Positions 1-42,946 of a stretch of 64,000 nt of DNA are shown piece after piece (the stretch's first letter is position 1; each line of letters begins with the position of its first letter). The notes beneath the pieces are model-generated. The model saw only the letters and a program-made list of their open reading frames with translations. It made no database searches and was not told where the DNA came from. The position numbers were made by a program, and so were the translations under genes. This DNA is from an uncultured Hormoscilla sp. (GTDB taxonomy: Bacteria > Cyanobacteriota > Cyanobacteriia > Cyanobacteriales > Desertifilaceae): positions 4,864,001 through 4,928,000 of the forward strand of contig OZ001293.3 in NCBI GenBank assembly GCA_963921275.4, in the 5' to 3' direction.

Positions 1-7
1 AGAATCG

Positions 8-619
8 ATGCTGCGAAATGGCGAGGTCAGCGTGAGCGGCTTCGTGGAACTGGTGGCTAAATCGGAGTTGTATCAAGAACTGTTTTTTAACAGTTCTTCG
101 CCCTATCGATTCGTGGAACTAAACTGCAAGCATCTGTTGGGTCGTGCGCCTAAGGACCAGGCGGAAATTTCAGAGCATGTCCAAATTTATAACTCACAGG
201 GCTACGAGGCAGAAATAGACTCTTACCTCACTAGCGAGGAGTATCAGTCCAATTTTGGCCAGAATATCGTCCCCTACCCGCGCAACAATAGCACCCAGCT
301 GGGGATCGCGAACGTAGGTTTTAACAGGACGTTTGCATTGATGCGGGGGGACGCCACCAGTGATAGTAGTAACCAGGCGCAGCTAATTGCTGATATCGCA
401 GCTGACCTCCCCACAAAGATTACTGCGGCTCCTGCTGGCTCTGGCACTTATAGCAATACTGGTAAGCGCTTCCGGATCGCAGTGGCAAAGGCGGGAACGA
501 CTCCTGTCTATAAGCAGAGCAACTTCGTCTATGAGGTGGCCTACGAGCAGATGTCTAAGAAAATTCAGAACATTCACAAAATGGGCAGCAAGATTGTCAG
601 TATTACTGAAGTTGCCTAG
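8..619 (+). CDS. cpeE: Phycoerythrin-associated rod linker (CpeE-like); 5' end lies before the window
   Basis: PBS linker motif (ELNCKHLLGRAP, EAEIDSY) and CpcD-like C-terminus (KRFRIAV...IVSITEVA); lies upstream of cpeSTR as in cpeCDESTR operons. Confidence 0.75.
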   Translation: MLRNGEVSVSGFVELVAKSELYQELFFNSSSPYRFVELNCKHLLGRAPKDQAEISEHVQIYNSQGYEAEIDSYLTSEEYQSNFGQNIVPYPRNNSTQLGIANVGFNRTFALMRGDATSDSSNQAQLIADIAADLPTKITAAPAGSGTYSNTGKRFRIAVAKAGTTPVYKQSNFVYEVAYEQMSKKIQNIHKMGSKIVSITEVA

Positions 620-738: not shown

Positions 739-951
739 ATGGCAGGAATGAATACCACTGGAACTCCCAAGAAGAGCGAGTATGACGATCGCACAGTGGA
801 GATAGAGGTGACGGGTGTATGTCGTCAAGATGTGATGCGGACGGGTAACTTTACGATGAAAGTTACTCACAGCCGTATGGTTGAGGCAATGCAGAACATT
901 AACAGTCTAGGTGGTAAGGTGTCCAAGGTGACGACGGCGCCATCAACATAA
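739..951 (+). CDS. Small CpcD-domain phycobilisome linker
   Basis: 70 aa; YDDRTVEIEVTG...V.HSRM..AMQNINSLGGKVSKV matches the CpcD/ApcC domain; RBS GAGG upstream. Confidence 0.8.
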   Translation: MAGMNTTGTPKKSEYDDRTVEIEVTGVCRQDVMRTGNFTMKVTHSRMVEAMQNINSLGGKVSKVTTAPST

Positions 952-1168: not shown

Positions 1169-1702
1169 ATGGATATTAGGGAATTTGTTAAACTTTCGAT
1201 CGGACGTTGGCGATCGCAGCGCAGCGGTCACAATTTGGCATTTAGCCATTTTGAAGAAGTGCGCTCGACTATTGATATAGTATCATTGGCAGCGTCGGAT
1301 AGCTCTGTAATTGAGCTGTGTAAGTCCGCAGGCATAGATCCAGCAGCAGCAATTAGTCCCTTTAGCATGAGTTGGGAGGGCCAATCAGATTGGGATGAAG
1401 AGGAAACTATCGTAGGTAACTGCGTCCTGGTGCCAATCCCCGATCGGGATAACATAAATCAGGGGAAATTACTGCGATCGCAGGGATATGCGGAAACGAT
1501 CGCCGCAGTAGGAGATTACTATTTTACCTCGGATGGCACTTTCGTCCTGCTGACAGAGTACGATCGGGCAGCAGCAGAGGAGAGAATCTGGTTTGCGACA
1601 GATAATCTCAGATTTAGAGTTTCTTCGATCAAAACCAGTGATGGAAAAGGTGTGGTAACGGCTTCCTTTGCCTCAGAGATTCGCTCGTTGTCGGGAAATT
1701 AA
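1169..1702 (+). CDS. cpeS: Phycoerythrobilin lyase CpeS
   Basis: GRWRSQRSGH, LLRSQGYAE, AAEERIWF motifs of the CpcS/CpeS family. Confidence 0.9.
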   Translation: MDIREFVKLSIGRWRSQRSGHNLAFSHFEEVRSTIDIVSLAASDSSVIELCKSAGIDPAAAISPFSMSWEGQSDWDEEETIVGNCVLVPIPDRDNINQGKLLRSQGYAETIAAVGDYYFTSDGTFVLLTEYDRAAAEERIWFATDNLRFRVSSIKTSDGKGVVTASFASEIRSLSGN

Positions 1703-1721
1703 TCAAGAGAAACGGGAAAAA

Positions 1722-2342
1722 ATGGCGATCGCAGAGCAGAACAAGAGTAGTATAGTACGGGATATGAAGGCGCTAGCCTGTTGGATGGCGGGAGATTTTA
1801 GTAACGAAAAACAAGCCTATGATAACCCGATAACCTATGCACATATTCATATATTTTGGCGACCATTACCCTATGAATTTTTTGAGGGAATCGGATTTTA
1901 TTCAGAGCAAGTTTATGACTACGATTTCTGGAGACCATACCGTCAGGGAGTCCATCGCCTAGTAGCTTTCAGCGATCGGATTTATATAGAAAACTACGGT
2001 CTGAAAGACCCGGTTCTATATGCGGGTGCAGCAAGGGAGTTAGATATTCTTAAAACGATTACGCCAGATGAGATTAAACGTCGCGAGCATTGTGGAATGA
2101 TTTTCTGGCGGGAAGGGGAAATGTTTCGAGGTGCTGTGGAGGGTAAAAATTGTTTGATAAATAGAAATGGATGGAAAACATATCTGGTGAGCGAGGTGGA
2201 ATTGACGGCAAAAACTTGGGTAAGTTTAGATAAGGGTATGGATGTGAATACCCACGAGCAAGTATGGGGCTCGAAGGCGGGACCGTTGAGATTTGAGAAA
2301 CGGCAAAGTTTTGCTGAAGAAGTACCGCCGATGTATGAATAA
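1722..2342 (+). CDS. cpeT: Chromophore lyase CpeT
   Basis: LACWMAGDFSN.KQA, YSEQVYDYD..RPYRQ, WGSKAGPLRF motifs; ATG at 1722. Confidence 0.9.
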   Translation: MAIAEQNKSSIVRDMKALACWMAGDFSNEKQAYDNPITYAHIHIFWRPLPYEFFEGIGFYSEQVYDYDFWRPYRQGVHRLVAFSDRIYIENYGLKDPVLYAGAARELDILKTITPDEIKRREHCGMIFWREGEMFRGAVEGKNCLINRNGWKTYLVSEVELTAKTWVSLDKGMDVNTHEQVWGSKAGPLRFEKRQSFAEEVPPMYE

Positions 2343-2384: not shown

Positions 2385-2690
2385 ATGTTGCCGCCACAAG
2401 CAGAAAAAAAGATGCAAGCGTGGATCCGCAGTAGACATCTGATCAGTTCGGGAAACTTTTTTATCTTGGAAACGGTAGAATATCCAACAGTAGAAAGATT
2501 TACAGAATGCGTAGAGAGTTTAGGAGGAACTTTAATAACAGTCCAACCAATAGACAAAATATGGATAGGGGATCATAGAAAAGTGATTTTATATCAAGCG
2601 AAAGCGAGTTTACATACACCCTATCACGATTTAAAACAATACTGGTTCAAATATGGTGGTTTGAAGACAAGATTTGATCGACGTTGTTAA
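2385..2690 (+). CDS. cpeR: Phycoerythrin operon regulator CpeR
   Basis: MLPPQAEKKMQAWIRSRHLI...LKQYWFKYG; follows cpeST. Confidence 0.9.
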   Translation: MLPPQAEKKMQAWIRSRHLISSGNFFILETVEYPTVERFTECVESLGGTLITVQPIDKIWIGDHRKVILYQAKASLHTPYHDLKQYWFKYGGLKTRFDRRC

Positions 2691-2709
2691 CAGAGAAAGG
2701 GAGAGAAAA

Positions 2710-4500
2710 ATGATCGGCAGTTTTATTAACCCAGTAATAACTAAAGCATCGGCATTAGGTGTCAGCTTGTTTGAAGAGACAGACACGATCGAGTTGTGGC
2801 AGTCCAGTTCAGAAGCAGAAGTGGAGACGGTGATTCGGGCAGTATACAGGCAAGTGTTGGGGAATGCTCATGTGATGGAGAGCGAGAGGTTAACCATCCC
2901 GGAATCCCATCTGCGCTCGGGGGAAATAAGCGTCAGAGATTTTGTGCGGGAAGTGGCGCTATCGGAAATGTATCGCTCCCGGTTTTACGACAACTGTCCC
3001 CGCTACCGCTCGATCGAGTTAAATTTCAAGCATTTGCTGGGTCGGGCCCCGGAAAGCTATGAGGAGATGTGCACTCATAGCAACATTTGGGATCGAGGCG
3101 GTTGGCAGGCAGAGATAGATTCCTATGTAGATAGTGAGGAATATCACGAGGCATTTGGGGAAAACAGAGTGCCGTTTTACCGGGGTTATAAAACCCAGAC
3201 AGGCAAGCGGGTAGTTGGGTTTACCCATATATTCCAACTCTTGCGCGGTGCTTCTAGCAGCGATAAATCCAGTTTTGTGGGGACAAGGTCAAGGCTAAAT
3301 CGGGCGATCGTCACCAATAATCCCAGCGTGATGATTCCCCTTTCATCCTCCTATGGGCGACCGACTGATGTCAATAAACTACTAGCTGATGTCCTAAAGC
3401 TGAAGCAACCAGCAATCGCGCCACCAACAAGTCGGCCAAAAATCCTATCAGCGGAGGTAGAAATAGCTCAATCCTGGCAAGGTCAATATCAATCATGGGA
3501 AGATCCAGAGCCAGTAGAGCTATGGCCAGGCCGATCGGAAACGGAAGTAGAAACGGTGATTCGGGCGGTATACAGGCAAGTTTTGGGGAATGCCCACGTG
3601 ATGGAGAGTGAACGACTCACAGTCCCGGAATCACAGATAAAACTTGGGGAAATCAGCGTCCGTGAATTTGTCCGTCAGGTGGCCAAATCGGAGTTGTACA
3701 GGTCGCGGTTCTTCGACAACTGCCCCCGCTACCGGGCGATCGAGTTAAATTTCAAGCATCTGCTGGGTCGTGCCCCTGATGACTACTCGGAGACTTTCTA
3801 TCACAGTAGCGTGCTGGATGCAGGCGGTTTTGAGGCGGAGATAGACTCTTATATCGATAGCGACGAGTACCAGGAAGCTTTTGGGGAAAACGTAGTACCG
3901 TTTTACCGAGGCTACAAAACCCAGACTGGCAAAAGGCTGCTTGGGTTTACCAACATGTTCCAACTATTGCCCAGCGTTTCGACTAGCGATAAAGCGGGTT
4001 TATCAGGAAATCTACCTCGGCTGAATCGGGCCCTGATTTACAATCATCCTACAGGCAAAGCCCCTGTCACGGATATCAATGCCTTGCTGGCTGAGGTGCT
4101 CAAGCCGAAGATCCAGCCCCAAGAAATTATCTCCAAAGCAGAACTGGCTCGCAAGCAAGCCTATCAAGCTTTGCAAAGCCAGTGTTCCGAACAAGAAACT
4201 GTGATTGCGACTTTACAACAACAGTTGGCAGAATTACGGGCAACTGCTACCATCGGAGCAGCCCAATTAAATAAGTGGCAGTCTTATAGCCCTTACTCCA
4301 ATGGCGGCACTGGTTTGACCATAGGCCGACAACCGACGGCAACCGCCGCCCTACCAGAAAGTTATGAGGCTTTGCAACAGCAGTATGCAGTAGGGGAAGA
4401 GACGATCGCCTCTTTACGGGAGCAAATCTCAGACCAGCAGCGCTTGGCCGCGATCGGATCGGCGCGATTGAATAAATGGCGCACCCGTTCTTTTTCCTAG
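2710..4500 (+). CDS. Phycobilisome rod linker with two tandem PBS-linker domains and a coiled-coil tail (CpeC/MpeD-like)
   Basis: Two copies of ETVIRAVYRQVLGNAHVMESERLT...ELNFKHLLGRAP; tail has two IGxAxLNKW repeats. Confidence 0.85.
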   Translation: MIGSFINPVITKASALGVSLFEETDTIELWQSSSEAEVETVIRAVYRQVLGNAHVMESERLTIPESHLRSGEISVRDFVREVALSEMYRSRFYDNCPRYRSIELNFKHLLGRAPESYEEMCTHSNIWDRGGWQAEIDSYVDSEEYHEAFGENRVPFYRGYKTQTGKRVVGFTHIFQLLRGASSSDKSSFVGTRSRLNRAIVTNNPSVMIPLSSSYGRPTDVNKLLADVLKLKQPAIAPPTSRPKILSAEVEIAQSWQGQYQSWEDPEPVELWPGRSETEVETVIRAVYRQVLGNAHVMESERLTVPESQIKLGEISVREFVRQVAKSELYRSRFFDNCPRYRAIELNFKHLLGRAPDDYSETFYHSSVLDAGGFEAEIDSYIDSDEYQEAFGENVVPFYRGYKTQTGKRLLGFTNMFQLLPSVSTSDKAGLSGNLPRLNRALIYNHPTGKAPVTDINALLAEVLKPKIQPQEIISKAELARKQAYQALQSQCSEQETVIATLQQQLAELRATATIGAAQLNKWQSYSPYSNGGTGLTIGRQPTATAALPESYEALQQQYAVGEETIASLREQISDQQRLAAIGSARLNKWRTRSFS

Positions 4501-4515
4501 ATCGGCCTTTTACGA

Positions 4516-4544
4516 GCGCGGTCAGCAGTTTTTCCGCTGACCGC
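4516..4544 (+). terminator. Hairpin after the linker gene
   Basis: GCGGTCAGC...GCTGACCGC inverted repeat. Confidence 0.5.
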
Positions 4545-4720
4545 TAAGCAAAAATATATTTGGGAATGATACTAATAGGTAGTCCGAAGTCCGCCCAGAA
4601 GATGCTAGGCAGAGCGATCGCCCGATATGGGGAAAAGAAACTTGATGGTAGTACCCTAAGTCCTCAAAATAAGACTAGCATGGAGTTGGAGGGATCTGTA
4701 GTCACAATTAAGTAAGTGTA

Positions 4721-5554
<834 letters not shown>

Positions 5555-5655
5555 AGGAGTAGAAGACAGATGTAAGGGGAAAAGCAGAAAGGGACTTGTA
5601 GCAAGGGCTTAGATAGGGTATACTAAAAAAAATAACAGAATTAGAGGTGGAGTTA

Positions 5656-8508
5656 ATGGCAAAGAAAAGCCGTGGAGTTCCGGCGTTATATTCAGAGATA
5701 AAGGTCAAGCTGGGGATTTCAATGACGCCCACAGGCAGAAAGTTGCTGACTAAGATGGCCGAAAAGGCGGATTTATCCCGCTCGGAAATGGTAGAGCAGA
5801 TCGCAAGAGGGTGTATCTCGATCGAGAGTGCCTCGGCAAAAATGGCGATAATGCTAAAGGAGGCGGTGGAAAATCAAGCTCTAACAGATGCAGAAATAGA
5901 ACAGCTGAGCACGAAGTTTCAGGTGGTCGATAGTGAATTGTCCAGTCCAGTGGAGGATGAGACAGGGTCTGAGGTGCAGTTAGAAAGTTCTCAAGCACAA
6001 GCACAGTTGATTGTAGATTTACAACAACAGATAAAGGAGTTGGAAGCAGCTCTAGCAACTAAGAACGAGGAGATGGTGCCGTTAGAAAATTATGAATCAT
6101 TGCGGCAAGAGTCGGCAGCACAAGCAACTCAGATAGAGGAGTTAGAAACAAAGCTAGCAGAATGGTCCGATCGGGTGCCGCGCTCAGAATATGAAACATT
6201 GCAGCAGGATTCGGCAGCGCAAGCAAGTCAGATAGAAGAGTTGCACTCCAGGATAGAGAAATTGTCGTCTCGGGTACCGCACTCAGAATATGAGTCATTG
6301 CAGGAGTCGTCAGCAGCATTATCAGAGGAGATCGCCTCCTTGAAAGCACAGCTTCAGGCATCTGAGGAGATAATGGCCAGTCAGAAAGAGCGGACAGTGC
6401 CGTTAGAGGAATATGAGTCATTGCAGCAGGACTCGGCAGCACAAGCAAGTCAGATAGAAGAGTTACACTCCAGGATAGAGGAATTGTCATCTCGGGTGCC
6501 AGTCTCAGAATATGAGTCATTGCAGGAGTCGTTAGCAGCATTATCAGAGGAGATCGCCTCCCTGAAAGCACAGCTTCAGGCATCCGAGGAGATGATGGCC
6601 TCTCAGAAAGAGCGGACAGTGCCGTTAGAGGAATATGAGTCATTGCAGCAGGACTCGGAAGCACAAGGGGAGGAGATAGCAGCATTAAAAGCACAGATAG
6701 GCCAGTTGGAAAAGAATGTGCCAGTCTCAGAATATGAGTCATTGCAGCAGGACTCGGCAGCGCAAGCAAGTCAGATAGAAGAGTTGCACTCCAGGATAGA
6801 GGAATTGTCGTCTCGGGTACCGCACTCAGAATATGAGTCATTGCAGGAGTCGTCAGCAGCATTATCAGAGGAGATCGCCTCCTTGAAAGCACAGCTTCAG
6901 GCATCTGAGGAGATAATGGCCAGTCAGAAAGAGCGGACAGTGCCGTTAGAGGAATATGAGTCATTGCAGCAGGACTCGGCAGCACAAGCAAGTCAGATAG
7001 AAGAGTTACACTCCAGGATAGAGGAATTGTCATCTCGGGTGCCAGTCTCAGAATATGAGTCATTGCAGGAGTCGTTAGCAGCATTATCAGAGGAGATCGC
7101 CTCCCTGAAAGCACAGCTTCAGGCATCCGAGGAGATGATGGCCTCTCAGAAAGAGCGGACAGTGCCGTTAGAGGAATATGAGTCATTGCAGCAGGACTCG
7201 GAAGCACAAGGGGAGGAGATAGCAGCATTAAAAGCACAGATAGGCCAGTTGGAAAAGAATGTGCCAGTCTCAGAATATGAGTCATTGCAGGAGTCGTCAG
7301 CAGCACTATCAGAGGAGATCGCCTCCTTGAAAGCACAGCTTCAGGCATCTGAGGAGATAATGGCCAGTCAGAAAGAGCGGACAGTGCCGTTAGAGGAATA
7401 TGAGTCATTGCAGCAGGACTCGGCAGCACAAGCAAGTCAGATAGAAGAGTTGCACTCCAGGATAGAGGAATTGTCATCTCGGGTGCCAGTCTCAGAATAT
7501 GAGTCATTGCAGGAGTCGTCAGCAGCACTATCAGAGGAGATCGCCTCCCTGAAAGCACAGCTTCAGGCATCCGAGGAGATGATGGCCTCTCAGAAAGAGC
7601 GGACAGTGCCGTTAGAGGAATATGAGTCATTGCAGCAGGACTCCGCAGCACAAGCAAAGGTGGTAGCTTCCTTAGAACAACAGATAACGGAGTTGCAACA
7701 TCGGGTGCCATTAGAGCAATATGAATCAGTGCGGCAGGACTCGGCAGCACAAGCAAAGGTGGTGGCAGAGTTACAACAACAGCTGAGTGAGTTGCAAGAA
7801 CATAGTATGGAAACAGAGAATGGGGAGACTGTGTCGTTACAGAGATATGAATCAGTCCGGCAAGAGTCGGAAGCAAAAGCAAAGGTGGTGGCCTCCTTAC
7901 AAAAGCAGATTAAGGAGTTGCTGCAAGAGCGCGTGCCGTTATCTACATATGAACATGTGCGACAAAAAGTTGCAGAACAAGCAACTCAGATCGCCCGATT
8001 AGAAAAAAAGATTAGTCAATATCGGGTGCCCTTAAACAATTATGAAGCGTTGCACCAGGAGTCCCGATCGCAAGCAAGTCAGATGGCCCAGTTACAACAA
8101 CAGATCCGCGAGCTGCAAGGACGGGTGCCATTAGAAAAATATGAAAGTTTGCGGCAACAGTCAGAACAAAAAGAACGGGCGATCGCCGCAATGCAACAAC
8201 AGATTCGGTTATTGTCAGATCGGGTGCCCAAAGAAGAATATGAATCTTTGTGGCAGTCTACCGTTCCGGAAAAATCGGAAAAACAAGCCAAGGTGGTGGC
8301 GCAACTGCAACAACAGCTTAACGGTTTGCAAGGTAATACAACTCAGACCAATGGAAATGGGCCGTTAGAGAGTTACGCATCTTTGCTACAGCAGTCTCAA
8401 GAACAGGCAAAGTTGATTGCCACCCTACAGCAAAAAGTTGCCGAGTTGCAGTCAACTTCCAGAATTGGAGAAGCTCATTTAAATAAGTGGCGTCAGCGCA
8501 ATTTTTAG
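5656..8508 (+). CDS. RHH/CopG-family DNA-binding domain fused to a long tandem-repeat coiled coil
   Basis: N-terminal GVPALYSEIK...MTPTGRKLL...LSRSEMVEQIARG is RHH-like; about 20 VP(L/V)xxYESLQQ repeats follow. Confidence 0.75.
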   Translation: MAKKSRGVPALYSEIKVKLGISMTPTGRKLLTKMAEKADLSRSEMVEQIARGCISIESASAKMAIMLKEAVENQALTDAEIEQLSTKFQVVDSELSSPVEDETGSEVQLESSQAQAQLIVDLQQQIKELEAALATKNEEMVPLENYESLRQESAAQATQIEELETKLAEWSDRVPRSEYETLQQDSAAQASQIEELHSRIEKLSSRVPHSEYESLQESSAALSEEIASLKAQLQASEEIMASQKERTVPLEEYESLQQDSAAQASQIEELHSRIEELSSRVPVSEYESLQESLAALSEEIASLKAQLQASEEMMASQKERTVPLEEYESLQQDSEAQGEEIAALKAQIGQLEKNVPVSEYESLQQDSAAQASQIEELHSRIEELSSRVPHSEYESLQESSAALSEEIASLKAQLQASEEIMASQKERTVPLEEYESLQQDSAAQASQIEELHSRIEELSSRVPVSEYESLQESLAALSEEIASLKAQLQASEEMMASQKERTVPLEEYESLQQDSEAQGEEIAALKAQIGQLEKNVPVSEYESLQESSAALSEEIASLKAQLQASEEIMASQKERTVPLEEYESLQQDSAAQASQIEELHSRIEELSSRVPVSEYESLQESSAALSEEIASLKAQLQASEEMMASQKERTVPLEEYESLQQDSAAQAKVVASLEQQITELQHRVPLEQYESVRQDSAAQAKVVAELQQQLSELQEHSMETENGETVSLQRYESVRQESEAKAKVVASLQKQIKELLQERVPLSTYEHVRQKVAEQATQIARLEKKISQYRVPLNNYEALHQESRSQASQMAQLQQQIRELQGRVPLEKYESLRQQSEQKERAIAAMQQQIRLLSDRVPKEEYESLWQSTVPEKSEKQAKVVAQLQQQLNGLQGNTTQTNGNGPLESYASLLQQSQEQAKLIATLQQKVAELQSTSRIGEAHLNKWRQRNF
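6170..7660 (+). repeat. Coding tandem repeats including a near-perfect 543-bp duplication
   Basis: Sequence at 6241 recurs at 6784 (offset 543); units begin GTGCC...GAATATGAGTCATTGCAG. Confidence 0.9.
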
Positions 8509-8798: not shown

Positions 8799-9413
8799 CT
8801 AGCTGGATGCTTTGGATTTAAACTGGGTAACTTGCTCTAGGCGAGATAAAGCACTGGTAGCTGACTCCCGAATATAGGGGTCAGCTGCTTCATTATTGGC
8901 AAGAGGGGATAGCACTTCAGCAGCTTTAGAGTCTCCCAGGGATCCGAGGGCATTAATCACCGCGACTTGGAGAGCAATATCATCGATAGTCATTGCCTCG
9001 ACGAGAATATCCAAGGCGGGTGGACCCACAGTGCCCAGTGCGCCCACTGCGGAGATTTTTACTACTGGGTTGGGGTCTTTTAGGGCTGTTTGCAAACCCG
9101 CAAGGGCTTCTTTTGGGAAGTTCTCTTCGGGAAAATTGAGGGCGATCGCCGCCAGGGCTTTAGCGCAGCTAGCCCTGACTGTTTCATTATCACTGCTTGT
9201 CAGTTGTTCTACCAATGCAGGGACAGCATCCAAACCAATAAGACCCAAAGCTTGCACGGCTGCCCGCCGGTAGACCACATCTTCATCCGACAAAATTCCC
9301 ATCAGTTGAGGAATAGTATCGGCAGTCCTTTCGGAGGCAATTTGGCGCATTGCTCTTTCTCGCAGTCTCGGATTCTTATGTTTGAGTTGTTGATACAAAT
9401 CTTCTGCGGTCAT
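8799..9413 (-). CDS. cpeZ: HEAT-repeat bilin attachment protein CpeZ-like
   Basis: E/F-type HEAT repeats (DEDVVYRRAAVQALG, VRASCAKALA, DPNPVV) in a PE cluster. Confidence 0.75.
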   Translation of the reverse strand: MTAEDLYQQLKHKNPRLRERAMRQIASERTADTIPQLMGILSDEDVVYRRAAVQALGLIGLDAVPALVEQLTSSDNETVRASCAKALAAIALNFPEENFPKEALAGLQTALKDPNPVVKISAVGALGTVGPPALDILVEAMTIDDIALQVAVINALGSLGDSKAAEVLSPLANNEAADPYIRESATSALSRLEQVTQFKSKASS

Positions 9414-9949
9414 ATTATTCTGAGGTAATTTGTGAATTTATCGTTCCAGAGTCATCGAAAACTCGCAAGAACTCCAGAGATTCGAGCGGGGAAGACAACC
9501 AGATTGTCAGCATTAGCGACTTTGGCTGAGGGAACCCAATCGCGCTTCTACCTGTTGCATGCTGTATACCACTTCTCCAATATTCTGCGTCGGAGCCAAC
9601 TGACCTTGGGCATTCATAAAACGCTAAGATGCCATGAGTTCCATTAGGGGTCGAGCTGGGAATCGCTTCCCAACCCTCCCTTTCGAACCGTGCATGCGGT
9701 TTTCATCGCACACGGCTACTGGTTAGTTGGACCTTGTCATTGGCAGGATTACTGGGGATTGCTCCCTTTGTCCCTCTTCTTATGCAGTTTTTCCCCTTTA
9801 TGGTAGTCGATAGGACTGTTTCGTATCTAGCTCCGGAAGGTTCGCGGGGGGTATCCAGGAAACCACTTATACCGCTCTTTGCTAACATTGCCCCTGTCTC
9901 GTCATTAGGGGACTTTTCAAGTTTTACCCGGCTAGAGTTTTAGTCCATA

Positions 9950-10961
9950 ACTCAAGTTGCGACCTATAAAAATTGGATACAAAAAGCTATGATAAAGAGA
10001 ATTATTTTCAACTCTAATCCCTTAGATGTAACAGCATGAATTGACTTGGGAAACAAATTTGTGATTCGACTAAAACAGGTTTCAACTTGTTTTCTTGTTA
10101 CTTTTTGTATATATTCAAAACAAGAATATTCTTTTCTTTTTGAGTTCTTTTTTCGCAAAGGTTTTAACATTATACTTGACGACTCTTTTAGTAAATCCTC
10201 TAATTGATAATCATTATAAGCTTTATCTCCATAAACTATTGAATTTGATGGTAAGTCAAAGCCAAAAGATTGCAAAACTTTAAAATCATTATAACTACCA
10301 GGATCTAGATAAAATTCTATTGGCTTTCCATTTTTGTTTACCAACATATGAACTCTTAATCCATAAAAATAACGTTTTTTACTGGCAATATACCCTCGAT
10401 ATTCTTCCTTGTTATAAATTTGGCATCTATCAATCCTAATATTATCACATACTGGCACCGGGAAACTATCAAGAATATATTCTTGACCCGGATTGAGCTC
10501 TTTAAATGTTTGAGCTATAACTTGGAAGAAAAACATCCAAATTGGTTCCTCAATATTGTGTAATCGACGATTGAACCTACTTTTACTTAACAGATTTTTT
10601 ATATACTTGTGTTGGACCATAAATTGACAAGAGCGATCGTGGTGTCCTCCGAAAAAATATGCAGCAACTAATCCGACTGTCATCACTTCGGCATTGTTCA
10701 TTTTTACTTGTGGATCTTCTTTTATATTTAACGCTTTTAGTAGCTCGTCACAAAGAACAAAAATTGTTGTAATCATATCTTCCATCATCTACATCCCCCA
10801 GCAATTAACTATTATTTTAGTACATTATAACCTATAAACAGCCAACCCGCTGTATAGCACAAAAAAAATATAATTTTGTATCAAAAGCTACGAAATATCC
10901 CAAATATCTGTAAAGTCTAAGTGGGTAATTCATATTTTTTTTAATAGGTCGCAACTTAGGT
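9950..10961 (-). mobile_element. IS982-family element, copy 1 (1012 bp)
   Basis: TIR AC(T/C)(C/T)AAGTTGCGACCTAT; target duplication TAGTCCATA; AT-rich. Confidence 0.9.
9964..10788 (-). CDS. IS982-family DDE transposase
   Basis: ILDSFPVPVC, YFYGLRVH, YGDKAY, RKQVETCFS motifs. Confidence 0.9.
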   Translation of the reverse strand: MMEDMITTIFVLCDELLKALNIKEDPQVKMNNAEVMTVGLVAAYFFGGHHDRSCQFMVQHKYIKNLLSKSRFNRRLHNIEEPIWMFFFQVIAQTFKELNPGQEYILDSFPVPVCDNIRIDRCQIYNKEEYRGYIASKKRYFYGLRVHMLVNKNGKPIEFYLDPGSYNDFKVLQSFGFDLPSNSIVYGDKAYNDYQLEDLLKESSSIMLKPLRKKNSKRKEYSCFEYIQKVTRKQVETCFSRITNLFPKSIHAVTSKGLELKIILFIIAFCIQFL

Positions 10962-11571: not shown

Positions 11572-12440
11572 GTGCGATTCGTTCTAGCCTAACGTGGTCA
11601 AACACGGAACGCTAGCCCGGTTTCATTAGCCGGGAACTCTGACCGCATGGGGGTTAAATTCCCCTCCCCCCAGGTACGGGGGTGACACCGGTCCTCGGTG
11701 CTACGAAGCGACATCATCGTGGTGCTAAGCGAGGACTCAAATGTAGGATAACTGGCAGCCTAAGCCGGTGACGCCGCTAGGAAAGATATCCAAGGTTAGA
11801 GCAGGCAAACATGTGCAAGCCTCGTTATAAGGAACCAGCGAAATAAGGCTATATGCGCTGGCCTAAAAAGGAAATGGTAGCTAGTATTAGTTTTAGACTC
11901 TGGCTAATATAGTACTCAAATAGCTCCCGGGGTATAGTGTGGACCTAAAGGTATCGCGAAATGTTGTTAGGGAACGAAGTAACCTCTCGTGTGCTGTCCA
12001 TCAGGACAAGTTAGATGTTAAGCGCAAGCCACGGGGGGAGGGATGGCCCAAGAAGCGAATGCCCGGGGTAATTCCTGGGATAACATCTACAGTAATGTAG
12101 ATGATGCTGGGTAGCCAGCGCTGACGTGGGTCGGTGATACTAGGAAGCTGCTGGAATGAGTAATCCTAAAAAGCCACGGAACTAATCCGAAACGCAAGTG
12201 GAGGATAAGGTATGGATAACTGGTAAAACTGACTTGAAAATGGTGATACTAACGGTTATCAGAACAACCACTCGCTAAACCAGGAAAGGGAAGAAAAGAC
12301 AGGCGGCAAGGGCTAACGGAAGTAATTCCTATTAAGTCTACCTATGAAAAGGGCCTAGTACCCAGTAGCCGGATGCGGTGAAAATCGCAAGTCCGGTTCC
12401 TCAAGGGAGGGTCGGGAAGCGATTCCCGGCTCGACCCCAT
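11572..12440 (+). ncRNA. ORF-less group II intron (inner), antisense within the outer intron
   Basis: 5' GTGCGATTCG; domain V TAGCCGGATGCGGTGAAAATCGCAAGTCCGGTTC; ends CTCGACCCCAT (end may be 12440-12442); EBS1 AGACTC versus exon GAGCCT. Confidence 0.88.
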
Positions 12441-12932: not shown

Positions 12933-13526
12933 TCATTGAGTTGCTGAGGCTCTGGTACGATTGAAGGCAATCATCTCTTCTAAGTCCTTACGCCCTACAC
13001 AGCGGCGTTCCGAGCAATAGGCCATCAGGTTCACTCCATTCATCATCCTGACGCTACTGACGCGCACCCGAAAATCATCGGTGAGAAACCAGCAGCGTTC
13101 CTGACCTTGGTTTCTTTCATATTCAGTATCGATCGTCAATATCCCATCTGGGGCAAAATAGTATCGACCCACCACTGGAATGCCTTCCACATAGCCACGG
13201 TTACGCAGGAAGAACCCCGTTCGGCTATTCTCAGGATCGGGAATGTCAACCAGAATTGCGGCATAATTGGGGTTAGGTTCAGTTAAGTCTAGGTTGTCCT
13301 GCCAGCCAAAACTCGCACCACCAGCAGCTCTAGCTAGATCGACCTTTTGCTCTACGCAAATTTGCTTGACTCTGGAGTCATCCCGATCGAACACTTGAAT
13401 AATCAGATTAGATTTCCCTGATTCATCCACCATAGAGTCAAAATGATGCACAGTGCGCTCGGAAAACCAGATTCCTTCACTTTTTCTAAAGAAATCCATC
13501 ATCGTCATTGGCGGTGTTAGCAGCAT
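12933..13526 (-). CDS. cpeU: S/U-type phycobiliprotein lyase CpeU
   Basis: PPMTMMDFF, RNRGYVEG, ERCWFLTDDFRVRVSS motifs. Confidence 0.8.
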   Translation of the reverse strand: MLLTPPMTMMDFFRKSEGIWFSERTVHHFDSMVDESGKSNLIIQVFDRDDSRVKQICVEQKVDLARAAGGASFGWQDNLDLTEPNPNYAAILVDIPDPENSRTGFFLRNRGYVEGIPVVGRYYFAPDGILTIDTEYERNQGQERCWFLTDDFRVRVSSVRMMNGVNLMAYCSERRCVGRKDLEEMIAFNRTRASATQ

Positions 13527-13671: not shown

Positions 13672-14526
13672 ATGCAGTCAATGGTAAAGAGCGATCGCTC
13701 CGGGTCGAATGTAACTCCTGCCGAGATGATATCAGCCCTCAAACCAGGTGCCAATCTTGCTGGTGCTGACTTACAGAGGATGGAGCTGATGAGGATGAAT
13801 TTATCCAGTGTAGATTTTAGCAAAGCGAATCTGCTCAAAGCTAACCTGATCGCAGCTCACCTGAGTGGGGCCAACCTGTCTGAGGCGAACCTCAGGGGTG
13901 CGGATCTCAGAGGGGCCAACCTGCGCGCAGCTCACCTGAGTGGGGCCGACTTGCAAGACAGCTCCTTAAACCGGGCCCAATTGCAGCAGGCGGATCTGAC
14001 TGGTGCCAACCTGGAACTCGCCAAGCTGCAACTAGCTTACTACGATCGCGAGACAATTTGGCCAGAAGGATTTGCTTATAAAAGTTCTGGAGCAGTGGGT
14101 CCAAAAGCCAATCTACCTGGGGCTTTTCTGAACACGGCCCATCTTCGGGGAGTAGATCTGCGAGGTGCTAACCTGCGGGGTGCTTACTTGAGTGGAGCTG
14201 ATTTGACTGGAGCTAATTTAGAGGGAGCGGCATTGAGTGGGGCCAACCTCCAGAAAGCCTATCTTACAGGAGCTTGCTTGCGCTCTGCTCGATTAAATGG
14301 TGCTGAGTTGCAGTTTGCCGATCTGCGGGCTGCTGACTTGACTGGAGCCAGTTTAGAACATATACAGAGCATCGCTGGGGCTGATTTTACCCTGGCTCAA
14401 GGACTGAGTGAGTCCGATCGGGCCATGCTTTGCGCCCATCCAGGGCAAGAGTTGGGCACTTGGAATCCTTTCACTCGCAATAATACTGCCCAGAGTCTCG
14501 GCTGTTCCCCGATCGCTGACAAATGA
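13672..14526 (+). CDS. Pentapeptide-repeat protein
   Basis: Extensive A(D/N)LxG repeats. Confidence 0.9.
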   Translation: MQSMVKSDRSGSNVTPAEMISALKPGANLAGADLQRMELMRMNLSSVDFSKANLLKANLIAAHLSGANLSEANLRGADLRGANLRAAHLSGADLQDSSLNRAQLQQADLTGANLELAKLQLAYYDRETIWPEGFAYKSSGAVGPKANLPGAFLNTAHLRGVDLRGANLRGAYLSGADLTGANLEGAALSGANLQKAYLTGACLRSARLNGAELQFADLRAADLTGASLEHIQSIAGADFTLAQGLSESDRAMLCAHPGQELGTWNPFTRNNTAQSLGCSPIADK

Positions 14527-14643: not shown

Positions 14644-15210
<567 letters not shown>

Positions 15211-15223
15211 CTAGGGGGATAGA

Positions 15224-15757
<534 letters not shown>

Positions 15758-16043: not shown

Positions 16044-17048
16044 GTGCTGGAACCCGATACCTTTCTTGAAGACGATCGCCGCGAAGATTTCTTTGCCTAT
16101 AATACAGGGCGCAATGGCGGCGAGTATTACACCCCCCGGCCTCTGATTCGCGCTATGATTCGGGTGGTGCAGCCGAAGATAGGCGATCGGATCTATGACG
16201 GCGCTTGCGGGTCGGGGGGGTTTCTGTGCGAGAGTTGCCTGGGAACTCCCACAACCAAACAAAATGAAATCCTACAAACCGAGACATTTTACGGGAAGGA
16301 GAAAAAGAGCCTCGCCTATGTCATAGCGATCATGAACATGATTTTGCATGGCATTAACGCACCTAACATCGTGCGCACCAACACCCTGACGGAGAACCTG
16401 AACGACATTCAGGACAAGGATCGCTTTGAGGTGGTTTTGGCAAATCCGCCCTTTGGAGGGAAGGAACGGAAGGAGGTGCAGCAGAATTTTCCGATTAAAA
16501 CGGGAGAGACGGCGTTTCTATTCTTGCAGCATTTCATCAAAAGCCTGAAGGTGGGCGGTCGTGCTGGGGTGGTGATTAAAAATACGTTTCTCTCGAATGC
16601 CGATAAGGCCTCTCGCGCCTTGCGAGAAGAACTGTTAACCAGTTGTAATCTGCATACGGTGCTGGACTGTCCCGGCGGGACGTTCATCGGTGCGGGGGTG
16701 AAAACGGTGGTGCTGTTCTTCGAGAAGGGGAGACCAACGGAGAAAATCTGGTATTATCAGCTTCAGCCAGGGCGCAGTTTGGGGAAGACCAACCCCCTCA
16801 ATGATGATGACCTGAAGGAGTTCGTGGATCTGCAAGGGAAGTTGGCCTCCTCCGAAAAGTCCTGGTTTGTGGATGTGTCGGAGATCGATCGGACGACGTT
16901 CGATCGGACGACGTTCGATCTGTCGGTGAAGAATCCGAATGGGCCAGAAGAAACACCGTTAAGGGATCCACAGGAGATTCTGGATGAGATCGCGGCGTTG
17001 GATGCGGAGACTGCGGAGATTTTGGCTAAAATTAGGGGGATGTTGTGA
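16044..17048 (+). pseudogene. hsdM: 5'-truncated type I R-M methyltransferase HsdM
   Basis: Homology starts at GRNGGEYYTPR; YDGACGSGGFL and LANPPFG present; N-terminal domain and a good start codon are missing. Confidence 0.75.
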
Positions 17049-17665
17049 GCAATCGCTGGGAAGTAGTGCCACTTGGCAAAGTTTGTTGGGTTGATAAGTT
17101 GCAATATAGTGGTTCTAACTTGCCTTATGTTGGTATGGAAGATATTGAGAGTGGAACTGGTAGGTTTTTGGGGTCATTAGAACCACGCAATGTACAAAGT
17201 TCAACATTTAAATTCACCCCTAAACATCTTCTTTATGGGCGATTGCGTCCATACCTAAATAAAGTGATGTTGCCTAGTTTTTATGGTCACTGCTCATCAG
17301 AGATTTTTCCTATTGCTGTTAGTGAAAAACTAGATCGTTCTTTCTTGTTTTACTGGTTAACAAGCAATAGTACTGTTGAGCGTATAAATCGCACCTGTAC
17401 AGGTGCAAGAATGCCGAGAGCCAATGTGAAATCAATTTTAAATTTCGATTTTCTTCTTCCACCACTCCCCGAACAAAAGCAGATTGTGGCGATCCTGGAT
17501 GAGGTGTTTGAGGAAATCGATCGCGCGATCGGCAACACTGAGAAGAACCTCGCTGCCCTCCAAGAACTCAAACAATCTATCCTGCAAAAAGCATTCACCG
17601 GAGAACTCACCGCCGACGCCGCTAACCAGGCGATACAAACCGCTAAGGAGATTGTCGCCGCATGA
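17045..17665 (+). CDS. hsdS: Half-size type I specificity subunit (single TRD)
   Basis: LYGRLRPYLNKV, PPLPEQKQIV..LD, LKQSILQKAFTGEL; only 206 aa. Confidence 0.75.
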   Translation: MSNRWEVVPLGKVCWVDKLQYSGSNLPYVGMEDIESGTGRFLGSLEPRNVQSSTFKFTPKHLLYGRLRPYLNKVMLPSFYGHCSSEIFPIAVSEKLDRSFLFYWLTSNSTVERINRTCTGARMPRANVKSILNFDFLLPPLPEQKQIVAILDEVFEEIDRAIGNTEKNLAALQELKQSILQKAFTGELTADAANQAIQTAKEIVAA

Positions 17666-17784
17666 ACAATTATTGTCTTCCTCGTAAATTTGACCATCCA
17701 ACCCGGGAGGATTTATGTAGATCCAGAAAATTCGGAAACCATTACAATACAAGTATCTAAGTGCCTAAAAGCAAATCGAGACCA

Positions 17785-20121
17785 ATGGATATGAACGAAG
17801 CTGAAACCCGCGCAGAACTGATCGACCCCGCCCTGAAAGCCGCCGGCTGGGGAGTTGTCCCCGATAGCGGCATCCGCCGCGAACGCATCACCCTCGGTCG
17901 CCTGATCGGTGATGGAAAACGTACCAAAAAATTAATCACCGACTACGTCCTGGTCTATCGCGATCGCAAGCTGGCAGTCATCGAAGCCAAGAGACGGGAC
18001 CTCCACGACACCGAAGGGGTGGGACAGGCGAAGAACTATGCGGAAAAATTGCAAACCCGTTTCGCCTACTCCACCAACGGCGATCGCATCTACCAGATCG
18101 ATATGCAAACAGGGACCGAAGGCTACGTCAACAATTATCCCAGTCCCGATGAACTCTGGGCTATGACCTACAGCCAGCAGAACGAATGGCGCGATCGCTT
18201 TGCGGTCATCCCCTTCCAGGACAAAGGTGGCAGCAAGGAAGCGCGGTACTACCAGCACAACGCCATCACCAATGTCCTAGAGGCGATATCCTCCGGGCGC
18301 GATCGCCTCCTGTTGACAATGGCAACGGGAACCGGTAAAACCTTCGTCGCCTTTCAAATCGCGTGGAAACTATTCCAAAGCCACTGGAATCTCACCGGGA
18401 AACCAACCCGCCGCCCCCGCATTCTGTTTTTAGCCGATCGCAATATCCTCGCCAACCAAGCCTTTAACAACTTTTCCGCCTTTCCCGACGATGCCCTCGT
18501 TCGCATCGACCCCGACTCAATCCGCAAGCGCGGTCGAGTCCCCAAGAATGGCAGCATCTTTTTTACCATCTTCCAAACCTTCATGACAGACAGCGCGAAG
18601 GAAGAAAACCCCACCCCCAACTTCGGCGAATATCCCCCCGACTTCTTCGACTTCATCATCATTGACGAATGCCACCGAGGAGGTGCGAGAGACGAAAGCA
18701 CCTGGCGCCGCATCCTGGAACATTTCTCACCCGCCGTACAGTTAGGACTCACCGCCACCCCCAAGCGCACCTACAATGCCGACACATACGCTTATTTTGG
18801 AGAGCCCGTTTACACCTACTCCCTCAAAGACGGCATCAACGACGGTTTTTTAACTCCCTTCCAAGTCAAGCAAATTCAAACCACTCTAGATGAATATCTC
18901 TATACCAAAGATGATATTATTCTCGAAGGGCAAGTGTCCGAAGGCAAACGCTACAGGGAAGAGGAATTCAACCGCATCATCGAGATCGAAGCACGGGAAA
19001 GATACCGCGTCAGGCTGTTGATGGCAGACATCGACCAAAATCAGAAAACCATCGTTTTTTGCGCCACCCAAGACCACGCACTCGCCGTGCGAAACTTAAT
19101 TAACCAAATGAAAAACAGCAGCAACCCGAATTACTGCGTGCGAGTTACTGCCAATGATGGGAAATTAGGCGAACTGCATTTAAGTAACTTTCAGGACAAC
19201 GAGAAAAACATCCCCACCATTCTCACCACTTCCCAGAAACTCTCCACCGGTGTTGATGCGCGGAACATTCGCAACATCGTTTTAATGCGTCCCATCAATT
19301 CCATGATTGAGTTCAAACAGATTATCGGTCGCGGCACCCGGCTTTTTGAAGGTAAAGACTATTTCACGATTTACGATTTTGTCAAAGCTTATGAGCATTT
19401 CAACGACTCCGAATGGGATGGGGAACCCGAAACCCCTATACTGATAACTGGTGGCGAAGAAAATAGAACCGATGAAGCTGGCCACAGGGAGGAAATAGAA
19501 CCGGATGTAAGCCAAGAACCAACCCAAAAAGTCAAAATCAAACTAGCAGACGGCAAAGAACGCATTATCCAGCACATGATGGCGACCTCTTTCTGGAGTC
19601 AAGATGGCAAACCCATATCAGCAGCAGAGTTCATCGAACAACTGTTTGGGGAACTCCCAGAACTGTTCAGAGATGAAAACGAATTACGGCAACTATGGAG
19701 CCTCCCCGATACCCGTCAAAAACTGTTAGAATGTCTTGAAGAGAAAGGTTACGGCCACGAGCAGCTTGTGGAAATTAGCCGCCTTTTCGACGCCGAGAAA
19801 AGCGACATATACGACGTGCTTGTCTACATTGCTTACAACAACTCACCCCCCATCACCCGCCAAGAGCGAGTCATCGCCCGCAAGGAGATAATATTCTCTC
19901 ACTACACTGACAAACAACAAGAATTTATAGATTTTGTATTATCGCAATACGTTAAAGGAGGCGTAGACGAACTAAGTATAGAATCATTACCTCAACTGCT
20001 AGAAATAAAGTACGGCAGCATTAGAGATGCTATGGACGATCAGGGGAACGATCCTGCCGCTATCAGAAATTTTTTTATTGGGTTTCAACAATACTTATAT
20101 GAAAACAAAACAGCAGCATAA
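17785..20121 (+). CDS. hsdR: Type I restriction subunit R (EcoEI/EcoAI-like)
   Basis: NEAETRAELID, VIEAK, MATGTGKT, DECHRG, QIIGRGTR. Confidence 0.9.
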   Translation: MDMNEAETRAELIDPALKAAGWGVVPDSGIRRERITLGRLIGDGKRTKKLITDYVLVYRDRKLAVIEAKRRDLHDTEGVGQAKNYAEKLQTRFAYSTNGDRIYQIDMQTGTEGYVNNYPSPDELWAMTYSQQNEWRDRFAVIPFQDKGGSKEARYYQHNAITNVLEAISSGRDRLLLTMATGTGKTFVAFQIAWKLFQSHWNLTGKPTRRPRILFLADRNILANQAFNNFSAFPDDALVRIDPDSIRKRGRVPKNGSIFFTIFQTFMTDSAKEENPTPNFGEYPPDFFDFIIIDECHRGGARDESTWRRILEHFSPAVQLGLTATPKRTYNADTYAYFGEPVYTYSLKDGINDGFLTPFQVKQIQTTLDEYLYTKDDIILEGQVSEGKRYREEEFNRIIEIEARERYRVRLLMADIDQNQKTIVFCATQDHALAVRNLINQMKNSSNPNYCVRVTANDGKLGELHLSNFQDNEKNIPTILTTSQKLSTGVDARNIRNIVLMRPINSMIEFKQIIGRGTRLFEGKDYFTIYDFVKAYEHFNDSEWDGEPETPILITGGEENRTDEAGHREEIEPDVSQEPTQKVKIKLADGKERIIQHMMATSFWSQDGKPISAAEFIEQLFGELPELFRDENELRQLWSLPDTRQKLLECLEEKGYGHEQLVEISRLFDAEKSDIYDVLVYIAYNNSPPITRQERVIARKEIIFSHYTDKQQEFIDFVLSQYVKGGVDELSIESLPQLLEIKYGSIRDAMDDQGNDPAAIRNFFIGFQQYLYENKTAA

Positions 20122-20157
20122 AGCGTATAACTTCTAGCTAAAACAACAATGCTTTTA

Positions 20158-20209
20158 GTCGGTTTTCAACCGACTTTAGCTATTAGCCGGGGGTTTGAAC
20201 CCCCGGCGG
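20158..20209. repeat. REP-like double hairpin
   Basis: GTCGGTT..AACCGAC and GCCGGGGGTT..AACCCCCGGC. Confidence 0.6.
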
Positions 20210-20294
20210 GTCTGGTTTACATCTGAGTATCTCCACAAACCATCGGCGTCTTCCGCATGCTCTTGTCCTGAAGGACTCGGCATACTCCAGACAC

Positions 20295-20349
20295 CGTCAC
20301 GCCATTTGCGGGCATCTTCTACATAGAAGTGAATGCGATCGATCTGCAT
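20295..20349 (-). pseudogene. N-terminal remnant of 4-hydroxyphenylpyruvate dioxygenase
   Basis: MQIDRIHFYVEDARKWRD resembles cyanobacterial HPPD N-termini; nothing homologous follows. Confidence 0.5.
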
Positions 20350-20427
20350 TGTTAATTGGGAATTGCTAATTGTTCCAAACAGATTACCTCTTTTGCTAGT
20401 TGAGTGCGATCTCCTCTGAAGATGGCA

Positions 20428-21972: not shown

Positions 21973-21975
21973 TGT

Positions 21976-22935: not shown

Positions 22936-22958
22936 AATCAACTTATTATATCAAGCCT

Positions 22959-40079: not shown

Positions 40080-41125
40080 ATGACCAGCATGACTGTGAAA
40101 TCCTTCCCAGCGGAAGGAGATGGTTTTCCTTGGTGGGCAGGCAACGCTCGTCTAGCGACGCTCTCAGGGCGTTTGTTGGGCGCTCATGTCGCTCACGCCG
40201 GTTTGATAGTGCTGTGGGCGGGAGCCTACACTCTGTTTGAGCTTTCGCGCTTCAACCCAGAACTGCCCATGTACTCCCAGGGCTTAATTGTGCTGCCAAA
40301 CCTGGCAAGGTTGGGTTTTGGCGTTGGTGAGGAGGGAATAGTCAATACCTACCCCTACTTCGTCATTGGAGCTTTGCACCTGATCAGCTCTGCCTTCTTG
40401 GGTTTCGGTGGCATCTTCCATGCCCTGAAAGGACCGGAAACCCTAGAAGAGAATTTTGACTTCTTTGGCTACCGGTGGGACGACAAAGACAAAATGACCA
40501 CCATCCTGGGCATTCACCTGATTCTTCTGGGTATCGGTGCTGAACTGCTGGTGGCCAAAGCAATGTTCTTTGGCGGACTCTACGATCCGACTGTCAGTCA
40601 TGTGCGCGTCATTTCTGGCCCGACCTTGAACCCAGCCGTCATCTTTGGCTACCTATTCGGTGGGGGTGGCACAAACTGGCTAGCAGGTGTCAACAACCTC
40701 GAAGATGTTGTCGGCGGTCATATTTGGATCGGCATCCTCTGTATTGCTGGCGGCATCTGGCATATGAAAACCGAGCCTTTCCCCTGGACAGAACGCCTCT
40801 TTATTTGATCGGGAGAAGCTTATCTGTCCTACAGCATCGGCGCTCTAGCCTTAATGGCCTTTATTGCCACGTTGTTCGTATCCGTTAACGATCTGGTATT
40901 CCCAGTCGAGTTCTACGGACCAACTTTAACTATCGGCATGGATCGCTTTCCCTCTTTTGAAGGTGTAGAGTTGCTGACCTCTCGCACTTGGCTGGCCAAT
41001 GCTCACTTCTGGTTGGGTTTTTTCTTCCTGCAAGGTCATATATTCCACGCACTTCGAGCCGCTGGTTTTGACTTCCGTCAGGGCAAAGTCAGCCAAGCAG
41101 ACAGCTTGACGGAGGAGGTCGCCTG

Positions 41126-41126: not shown

Positions 41127-42946
<1,820 letters not shown>

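Follow-up and report, generated by a model that had tools for sequence, protein, structure and literature searches.

How does an antenna linker come to share its very end with a putative DNA-binding protein encoded beside it? This question is raised by a stretch of 64,000 nucleotides from an uncultured Hormoscilla sp. (contig OZ001293.3, positions 4,864,001 to 4,928,000; the whole stretch is hereafter called the window), which, as DNA of a Hormoscilla-like cyanobacterium, begins within a cluster of phycoerythrin (PE) genes. Here the gene cpeR is followed by a gene for a two-domain phycobilisome linker that ends in a tail of two helical units, and then, on the same strand, by a gene whose product combines a ribbon-helix-helix (RHH) head, a very long coiled coil and a tail of the same kind. 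A first-pass annotation of this DNA had proposed that the shared tail couples the two proteins by direct pairing. The answer offered in this article is a tentative one: the tail may be a docking module that takes any head to a conserved cellular site which all its carriers have in common, rather than a private pairing device.

Is the tail truly the same in both proteins? The three C-terminal units quoted in the first-pass annotation are all present in the sequence as written (Table 1). When the last 129 residues of the linker are compared by BLASTP with the open reading frame (ORF) of the RHH protein, unit 1 aligns to the terminal residues of that ORF with 22 identities in 41 positions (54%, E=1e-10), and a second alignment places both linker units on the last 46 residues of the RHH protein. 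A hidden Markov model (HMM) of the tail was also made from 13 foreign linker tails, without rows from the window so as to avoid circularity, and run on the 373 window ORFs of at least 40 residues; only the linker and the RHH protein are matched. The module that ends both proteins is thus real and homologous in the two.

The tail extends well beyond this pair. A profile of 48 positions (A1), based on 15 terminal units, was searched against 1.84 billion cluster representatives and found 211 of them at E<=1e-3, of which 95 reach E<=1e-10; the carrier statistics below rest on the best 150 of these 211. In each of the 150 listed proteins, 0-8 residues separate the end of the best tail match from the C-terminus, and this distance is two residues at most in 137 of them. 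Their heads, sorted into classes by HMM, BLAST and regular expressions, are 37 PF00427 linkers, 31 RHH heads, 7 HMA_2 domains (PF19991), two unnamed types (5 and 4 proteins) and 26 others, the remaining 40 proteins being short or fragmentary. All named carriers among these representatives are cyanobacterial, and one tailed RHH protein is annotated as a “CopG family transcriptional regulator” of Limnospira fusiformis. The module is a strictly C-terminal helix of about 45 residues, the final 14 of which read I-G-E-A-x-L-N-K-W-R-x-R-x-F. In the tails that can be anchored on the tryptophan (141 of the 150), the residues A, I, G, E, L, N, K, W, R, R, and F carry 2.9-4.3 bits each, the five consecutive positions L-N-K-W-R reach 3.3-4.3 bits each, and every face of the helix is constrained. 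Across five or more head types, 11 of the 18 terminal positions are near-invariant. One position depends on the class of the carrier, being R in 25 of 37 linkers and Q, H or Y in 24 of 28 RHH tails. Foldseek searches with a model of the tail return generic long helices only. No description of the tail, of a tailed linker after cpeR or of the pair was found in the open-access literature (a scope outside which most subscription journals fall), which agrees with the earlier remark that the pair is undescribed; in the 2026 review PMC13436157, the words “coiled” and “CpeR” have no occurrence.

The linker is the first of the two carriers. Its ORF (2674-4500) has 608 codons, but translation from the ATG at 2710 yields the 596-residue product that is present as an exact match in the protein collection. 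PF00427 is matched in two stretches (336.7 bits, E=7e-102, above the cut-off), while a CpcD-like domain (PF01383) is absent from this linker and from five relatives. The first-pass annotation had placed the tail where a CpcD domain would be usual; this is right in that PF01383 is missing, although a CpcD domain is usual for rod linkers of the CpcC/CpeC type and not for every linker class. The best solved relatives are CpcN (8imn_5, E=1.5e-217), Glr2806/CpcJ (9k9w_M2) and Glr1262, with E-values from 1.5e-217 to 3.7e-142; among solved single-domain linkers, CpcC scores 204 bits against 80-83 bits for CpcG chains. The NCBIfam models of CpcG1-4 give 167-207 bits, under their cut-offs of 420-440. 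There is no hydrophobic C-terminal helix in the window linker, its highest Kyte-Doolittle mean over 19 residues being 1.21, and located N-terminally. AlphaFold2, run on the linker tail with an alignment of 27 tails, predicts helices at positions 2-50 (unit 1) and 77-120 (unit 2) with a predicted local distance difference test (pLDDT) score of about 80, and a disordered spacer between them.

Four relatives of the linker (P0052, P0082, P0174, and P0164) have 3, 4, 4 and 7 PF00427 domains among them, and the tail is present there too. As far as sequence comparison goes, the linkers encoded after cpeR thus form a family akin to CpcC, CpcJ and CpcN, in which PF00427 is present one to seven times, a CpcD domain is lacking and the tail has two units throughout. 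For another tailed linker, P0026, the precomputed domain list gives PF27944.1, an entry that may cover the tail. In the Anthocerotibacter structure, according to PMC10696076, two neighbouring discs are held by a CpcJ with two domains, and five are strung together by CpcN; the same paper says that crown cyanobacteria have no CpcN homologues. The window linker and its relatives are crown-cyanobacterial, which shows that linkers with several PF00427 domains and no CpcD domain extend beyond the thylakoid-less cyanobacteria. CpcN is the best solved relative of these crown-cyanobacterial linkers.

The second carrier begins with the head. Its ORF spans 5647-8508, and the ATG at 5656, which lies behind GAGGTGGAG, opens a reading frame of 950 codons. 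Against Pfam RHH_1 the window head scores 17.4 bits, below the cut-off of 20.5, but seven relatives with the same head exceed this cut-off with 22.3-27.2 bits (68 of the 150 listed tail carriers were scanned), and an HMM of 25 foreign heads matches the window head at E=1.5e-22. A profile of 13 heads adjoining tailed linkers (A2) aligns to residues 2-32 of CopG (1b01/2cpg, E=2.1e-6). In the AlphaFold2 model, made with a 38-row alignment, two helices have a pLDDT of about 90 and the strand is unformed in the monomer, for a mean pLDDT of 67.9. The top Foldseek matches of this model are CopG, ORF56, TacA, MazE, PutA, and Arc, all of them RHH proteins (probability 0.95, E=0.7, none at E<=0.001). 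The turn between the two helices, for which the RHH fold has the form G-x-S/T/N, reads D-L-S-R-S in the window and G-L-S-R-S in most relatives. Head profiles, relatives and models agree with the RHH/CopG-like head and fold proposed in the first-pass annotation; apart from the sub-threshold RHH_1 score, they mark the window head as a CopG-type RHH. RHH proteins bind DNA as dimers through their paired strands, as is predicted for this head. Word-indexed searches with the head found no homologue, and its relatives, which are 18-43% identical, came only by profile. A plasmid search gave six records that match the head only; two were translated, and both stand by Tn7-like genes and are without coiled coil or tail. 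The CopG-type proteins L081:3992-4561 (Gloeothece citriformis PCC 7424 plasmid) and L083:3992-4549 (Calothrix NIES-4105 plasmid) have a related head and a C-terminal half that is not a coiled coil, and adjoin TnsA/TnsC-type annotations.

Between head and tail lies a glutamine-rich coiled coil (residues 110-900 approximately), for which matches to SMC/Rad50 coiled coils stay sub-threshold. Much of it is encoded by near-identical tandem repeats with periods of 99, 222, 321 and 444 nt and 67-93% matches, by which the coiled coil grew to about 800 residues in the Hormoscilla lineage. This body holds 13 weaker, partial matches to positions 1 to 25-36 of the tail HMM, so its repeats are related to the helical part of the tail unit. 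The orthologous ORFs, which come directly after the linker, have 551, 846 and 772 codons in three other Hormoscilla genomes (L001:2625-4280, L002:7610-10150, and L003:7832-10150), and the ORF of the window (5647-8508) has 953, the length varying with the repeat number; repeat collapse in assemblies of metagenome-assembled genomes (MAGs) could contribute to these differences. A protein atlas search with P0075 gave no match at or above 0.9.

How regularly are the two genes found together? When 185,579 species genomes were scanned for the pattern GE[ATY][RH]LNKWR, 139 places were confirmed, of which 80 were examined. A tailed PF00427 linker is found in 76 of these 80 loci, always with two tail units, and cpeR stands directly upstream in 66 of the 76. 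The PE linker operon thus ends, as a rule, with the tailed linker, in the order cpeS-cpeT-cpeR-linker. In 11 of the 76 loci, the HMM of 25 foreign heads recognizes an RHH coiled-coil gene that follows the linker on the same strand at a distance of 41-997 nt; these loci come from Hormoscilla (L001-L003), Xenococcaceae (L005, L012), Symploca (L006, L051), Oscillatoria SIO1A7 (L008), Pleurocapsa (L060), Prochloraceae (L068), and Pleurocapsales (L076). With loci sorted by their record titles, these are 11 of the 25 non-Nostocales loci with at least 700 nt of downstream sequence, against none of the 43 Nostocales-type loci with at least 2 kb. In six loci (L001-L003, L006, L008, and L051) the RHH gene has PE genes on both sides. 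An RHH gene directly after the linker, on the same strand and within the PE cluster, is therefore a feature of several non-Nostocales lineages, and this conserved neighbourhood says that both proteins work in one process. Two contigs with tail-bearing genes are filed outside the cyanobacteria, L004 under an Actinomycetota MAG and L017 under an Acetobacteraceae MAG; the latter is probably a mis-binned cyanobacterial contig, since it holds a Nostoc-like cpeR-linker pair.

The neighbours differ in how they end. Of the RHH neighbours in the 11 loci, seven carry the tail at their C-terminus and three are truncated by the end of their contig. Two RHH coiled-coil genes adjoin the tailed linker in L076, and the products of both lack the tail and have instead a hydrophobic, membrane-anchor-like end; the linker-RHH neighbourhood is therefore independent of the shared tail. 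In L005, a second RHH coiled-coil gene likewise ends in a segment resembling a membrane anchor. The Kyte-Doolittle values of these paralogues (L005:12187-13152, L076:10422-11057, and L076:11058-12830) are 2.07-2.68, as compared with 1.08-1.21 in the window proteins, making them candidates for tail-anchored, membrane-bound DNA-binding rods. On the linker side, a CpcL-like linker of about 250 residues with a hydrophobic C-terminus comes directly after the tailed linker in three loci (L065:4222-4995, L067:2856-3611, and L072:10276-11031).

It is this behaviour of the tail that leads us, tentatively, to see in it a docking module for one common site, most likely the phycobilisome or the cytoplasmic face of the thylakoid. 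Docking is favoured over private pairing because the tail is independent of its head and always terminal, because its conservation covers all faces of the helix, and because tail and membrane anchor replace each other within both families (L005 and L076 for the RHH proteins; L065, L067, and L072 for the linkers). In such a scheme, the linker tail would replace the CpcD domain or the CpcL-type membrane helix, fixing one or two phycoerythrin discs at the docking site. The RHH protein would dimerize through its head, and its two tails would hold the dimer at the same site with the DNA-binding head at the far end of the rod; regulation of the cpe genes and tethering of DNA are both conceivable for this head.

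Direct pairing of the tails, as the first-pass annotation had it, is a rather unlikely explanation. Here the tail helices of the linker would coil with the tail or the repeats of the RHH protein, so that the DNA binder is held by, or reports on, unassembled or assembled PE linker. The homology of the tail helices, the long helices predicted for both linker units and the neighbourhood kept in 11 of 76 loci are all in its favour; the 13 body units resembling the tail could provide many pairing sites, and the class-dependent position (R as opposed to Q, H or Y) might be complementary. Yet both RHH neighbours in L076 stand beside a tailed linker without having a tail themselves, and the RHH tail of L005 is devoid of the otherwise conserved tryptophan. 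The tail of the window RHH protein is no more similar to that of its own linker (43% identity) than to those of foreign linkers (40-55%). The L-N-K-W-R run and the conservation of all helix faces are also unlike the a/d pattern expected of plain two-stranded pairing. Moreover, the tail is borne by many other heads. With this spread of the motif over other heads (7 HMA_2 proteins, two unnamed head types and 26 others among the 150 listed), what the first-pass annotation had named as speaking against its own model holds in part. A complex prediction for the linker tail (121 residues) and the RHH tail (95 residues), run without controls, scores 0.05 against a mark of 0.32 and carries no weight either way.

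It is also unlikely that the tail is a mere end-cap or oligomerization element with no common partner, the RHH protein being an ordinary CopG-type factor for the PE cluster with a long dimerization rod, and the likeness of the tails reflecting common descent of a stable helical unit. Such a view accords with the bona fide CopG-like head and its G-L-S-R-S turn, with head relatives that have neither coiled coil nor tail and are annotated as CopG regulators on cyanobacterial plasmids, with the place of the gene inside the PE cluster, and with a protein length that ranges from 551 to 953 residues in four Hormoscilla genomes as if it were uncritical. Plain oligomerization would however neither hold 11 of 18 terminal positions near-invariant over five or more head types nor confine the tail to the extreme C-terminus in all 150 listed carriers; a monomeric linker that bears two units fits it poorly, and replacement by a membrane anchor points to localization instead.

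Several observations weigh against docking at a common site. No Pfam or NCBIfam model matches the tail, and its profile meets only generic coiled coils among solved structures (best E=0.016), with no solved relative. By our own reading the tail falls short of a clean amphipathic helix, and that it would bind lipid directly is therefore not evident. The scan pattern GE[ATY][RH]LNKWR favours linker tails, and RHH-type contexts are therefore under-sampled. The Nostocales retain the tailed linker with no adjacent RHH gene. We know of no antenna link for the HMA_2 and unnamed heads, and Limnospira is, to our knowledge, a genus without phycoerythrin, so that its tailed RHH protein implies that the common site, if any, is not phycoerythrin itself; the same case stands against private pairing. 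Finally, the tailed RHH gene of L004 stands among housekeeping genes (aldolase, NusB, and FtsY) with no antenna gene near. The co-occurrence of RHH and linker carriers in PE clusters, suggested as a check in the first-pass annotation, holds for 11 of 76 linker loci in several lineages, but not for L004.

A more specific form of the docking idea is in our view distinctly unlikely. The RHH-coiled coil-tail proteins and their membrane-anchored paralogues would be physical tethers, that is, rods of 50-130 nm (an estimate from helix length) with a foot at the phycobilisome or thylakoid surface, attached by the tail or the membrane helix, and a sequence-specific DNA-binding head at the far end. They would hold DNA, possibly the cpe locus, at the place where the antenna is built, or release a repressor once the tailed linker occupies the site. 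In the repressor-release form, the coupling of antenna to DNA would be a competition for one site and not a pairing.

It is very unlikely that the two genes have no functional link, the RHH gene being an accidental insertion neighbour and the shared tail a coincidence of a common cyanobacterial module. The locus is indeed an insertion hot spot (with a group II intron in the window and linker fragments in L008), and RHH genes are absent from 65 of the 76 tailed-linker loci. Nevertheless, position and strand are the same in Hormoscilla, Symploca, Oscillatoria, Xenococcaceae, Pleurocapsa/Pleurocapsales, and Prochloraceae, where the heads share only 18-43% identity with that of the window; the arrangement is old and no recent accident. 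Extremely improbable, lastly, is a positioning adaptor like McdB or ParG, whose basic N-terminus and RHH would engage a nucleoid ParA-type ATPase while the tail binds cargo: the layout recalls McdB as described in PMC7182216 (charged N-terminus, glutamine-rich coiled coil, and conserved C-terminal tryptophan), but McdB has no RHH, its tryptophan lies within the last four residues and McdA is adjacent, whereas the tail tryptophan stands at least five residues from the end of complete tails and is followed by R-x-R-x-F and mostly by further residues (141 of 150 anchored), and no ORF with a ParA-type Walker A motif (KGGxGK[ST] in the first 60 residues, 180-450 residues long) occurs in the window or the 80 loci.

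The RHH gene had been taken in the first-pass annotation for the directly next gene after the linker. In fact the two are 1.1 kb apart in the window, because an ORF-less group II intron is inserted between them; in the three Hormoscilla relatives (L001-L003) the gap is about 295 nt. Positions 4500-5647 contain no ORF of 60 residues or more. The Rfam model RF00029 matches domains 5 and 6 of the intron with 47 bits (E=4e-6, gathering score 40). Because the intron is on the sense strand, it may be spliced from a linker-RHH transcript. Over 851 nt it matches 42259-41411 of the other strand with 99.2% identity, and it is 72-76% identical to a copy at 11.0-12.4 kb of the window; it belongs to a family of ORF-less introns there, with five domain-5/6 matches in Rfam, including 9643-9720, 12364-12440, and 58548-58625. 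Just 3′ of the linker stop codon, a perfect 9-bp stem (GCGGTCAGC...GCTGACCGC, 4517-4545) is kept in the three Hormoscilla relatives. A scan for sigma-70 promoters and terminators gave a site count not above that of shuffled sequences and no site in the linker-RHH gap, and does not list this stem; a k-mer comparison of intergenic regions for common operator-like words gave nothing convincing.

Table 1. Features of the tailed linker, the RHH protein and their surroundings in the window.
Feature	Position	Strand	Remarks
cpeC-like linker	2-619	+	with CpcD domain (PF01383)
CpcD-only ORF	739-951	+	
cpeS	1169-1702	+	
cpeT	1668-2342	+	
cpeR	2385-2690	+	101 residues; directly upstream of the tailed linker; exact sequence clusters with “CpeR family transcriptional regulator” of Hormoscilla MAGs
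Two-domain phycobilisome linker	2710-4500	+	596 residues; two PF00427, no CpcD, two-unit C-terminal tail
Linker tail unit 1	4159-4284	+	ends ...ATIGAAQLNKWQ; tail HMM 49.8 bits; residues 496-537 of the 608-residue ORF
Linker tail unit 2	4354-4497	+	ends ...AAIGSARLNKWRTRSFS; tail HMM 72.7 bits; residues 561-608 of the 608-residue ORF
ORF-free stretch	4500-5647		1.1 kb
ORF-less group II intron	4706-5555	+	GTGCG at 4721; domains 5/6 at 5476-5553
RHH-coiled coil-tail gene	5656-8508	+	950 residues from ATG 5656
CopG-type RHH head	5689-5811	+	strand at about residues 14-22, helices 25-37 and 42-51; preceded by basic N-terminus
Tandem DNA repeats	6091-7797	+	encode proline-punctuated ...EYESLQQ... 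helical units (Tandem Repeats Finder)
Terminal tail unit of RHH protein	8368-8505	+	ends ...SRIGEAHLNKWRQRNF; tail HMM 60.7 bits, independent E-value 2.2e-18
HEAT-repeat gene	8799-9413	-	
Transposase	9964-10788	-	
Second cpeS-like gene	12933-13526	-	
Pentapeptide gene	13672-14526	+	
cpeBA	14644-15757	-	

Beside the PE cluster, positions 16044-22941 hold a type I restriction-modification set (methylase, S subunit, and R subunit), an Eco57I-like methylase and a XamI-family endonuclease. Farther on, three matches to the IsrR antisense RNA (98-124 bits) are found at 40476-40653, 42359-42536, and 43344-43518 on the minus strand; they imply three tandem isiA-like genes, with one copy of the group II intron among them.

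Why should a tail of some 50 residues matter? A basal linker decides through its C-terminus where a rod is attached: with CpcG this is the core, and with CpcL the membrane-bound photosystem I. If the linker after cpeR bears a third such device, and a widespread one, phycoerythrin discs would have a third way of being attached; no such device appears in the phycobilisome structures searched or in the review PMC13436157. The tail is also found at the end of CopG-type DNA-binding rods, of HMA_2 proteins and of proteins with other heads, which suggests a general cyanobacterial address label. The 50-residue peptide is thus a testable handle on how non-antenna proteins, a DNA binder included, are placed relative to the photosynthetic apparatus.

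PutA and plant MFP1, the latter a thylakoid-anchored coiled-coil protein, are DNA-binding proteins that are also attached to membranes, and their likeness to the RHH protein is one of analogy only. CopG, the repressor of plasmid pMV158 (1b01, 2cpg), aligns with the head and is also its best fold match, but has 45 residues in all, whereas the window protein carries about 850 residues of coiled coil and tail after the head. FciC of the CA4-A islands of marine Synechococcus is likewise an RHH protein encoded in an antenna-related gene island; as described in PMC3877281, it has 55-67 residues and neither coiled coil nor tail.

Like the rod linkers CpcC and CpeC, the window linker is encoded in the cpeC...cpeR operon and has PF00427 domains closest to CpcC among solved single-domain linkers, but a two-unit helical tail replaces their CpcD-like PF01383. 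CpcL (rod-membrane) and CpcG (rod-core) linkers offer the precedent of a C-terminus that sets the place of rod attachment; the window linker differs from the former in having no hydrophobic helix, and from the latter in staying below the cut-offs of the CpcG models. With CpcJ (Glr2806), CpeG (Glr1262) and CpcN of Gloeobacter and Anthocerotibacter (PDB 9k9w, 8imn, 8iml; PMC10696076), it shares at least two PF00427 domains and the lack of a CpcD domain, whereas their chains do not match the tail profile and are described there as limited to thylakoid-less cyanobacteria. The closest parallel to the role proposed here is that of ferredoxin-NADP reductase. Its CpcD-like domain is unrelated to the tail in fold and sequence, and docking by the tail is the part that we infer; but according to PMC13436157 and PMC10696076, this enzyme is bound to the antenna through that domain, a small module which it has in common with rod linkers and by which a protein from outside the antenna is docked on the phycobilisome.

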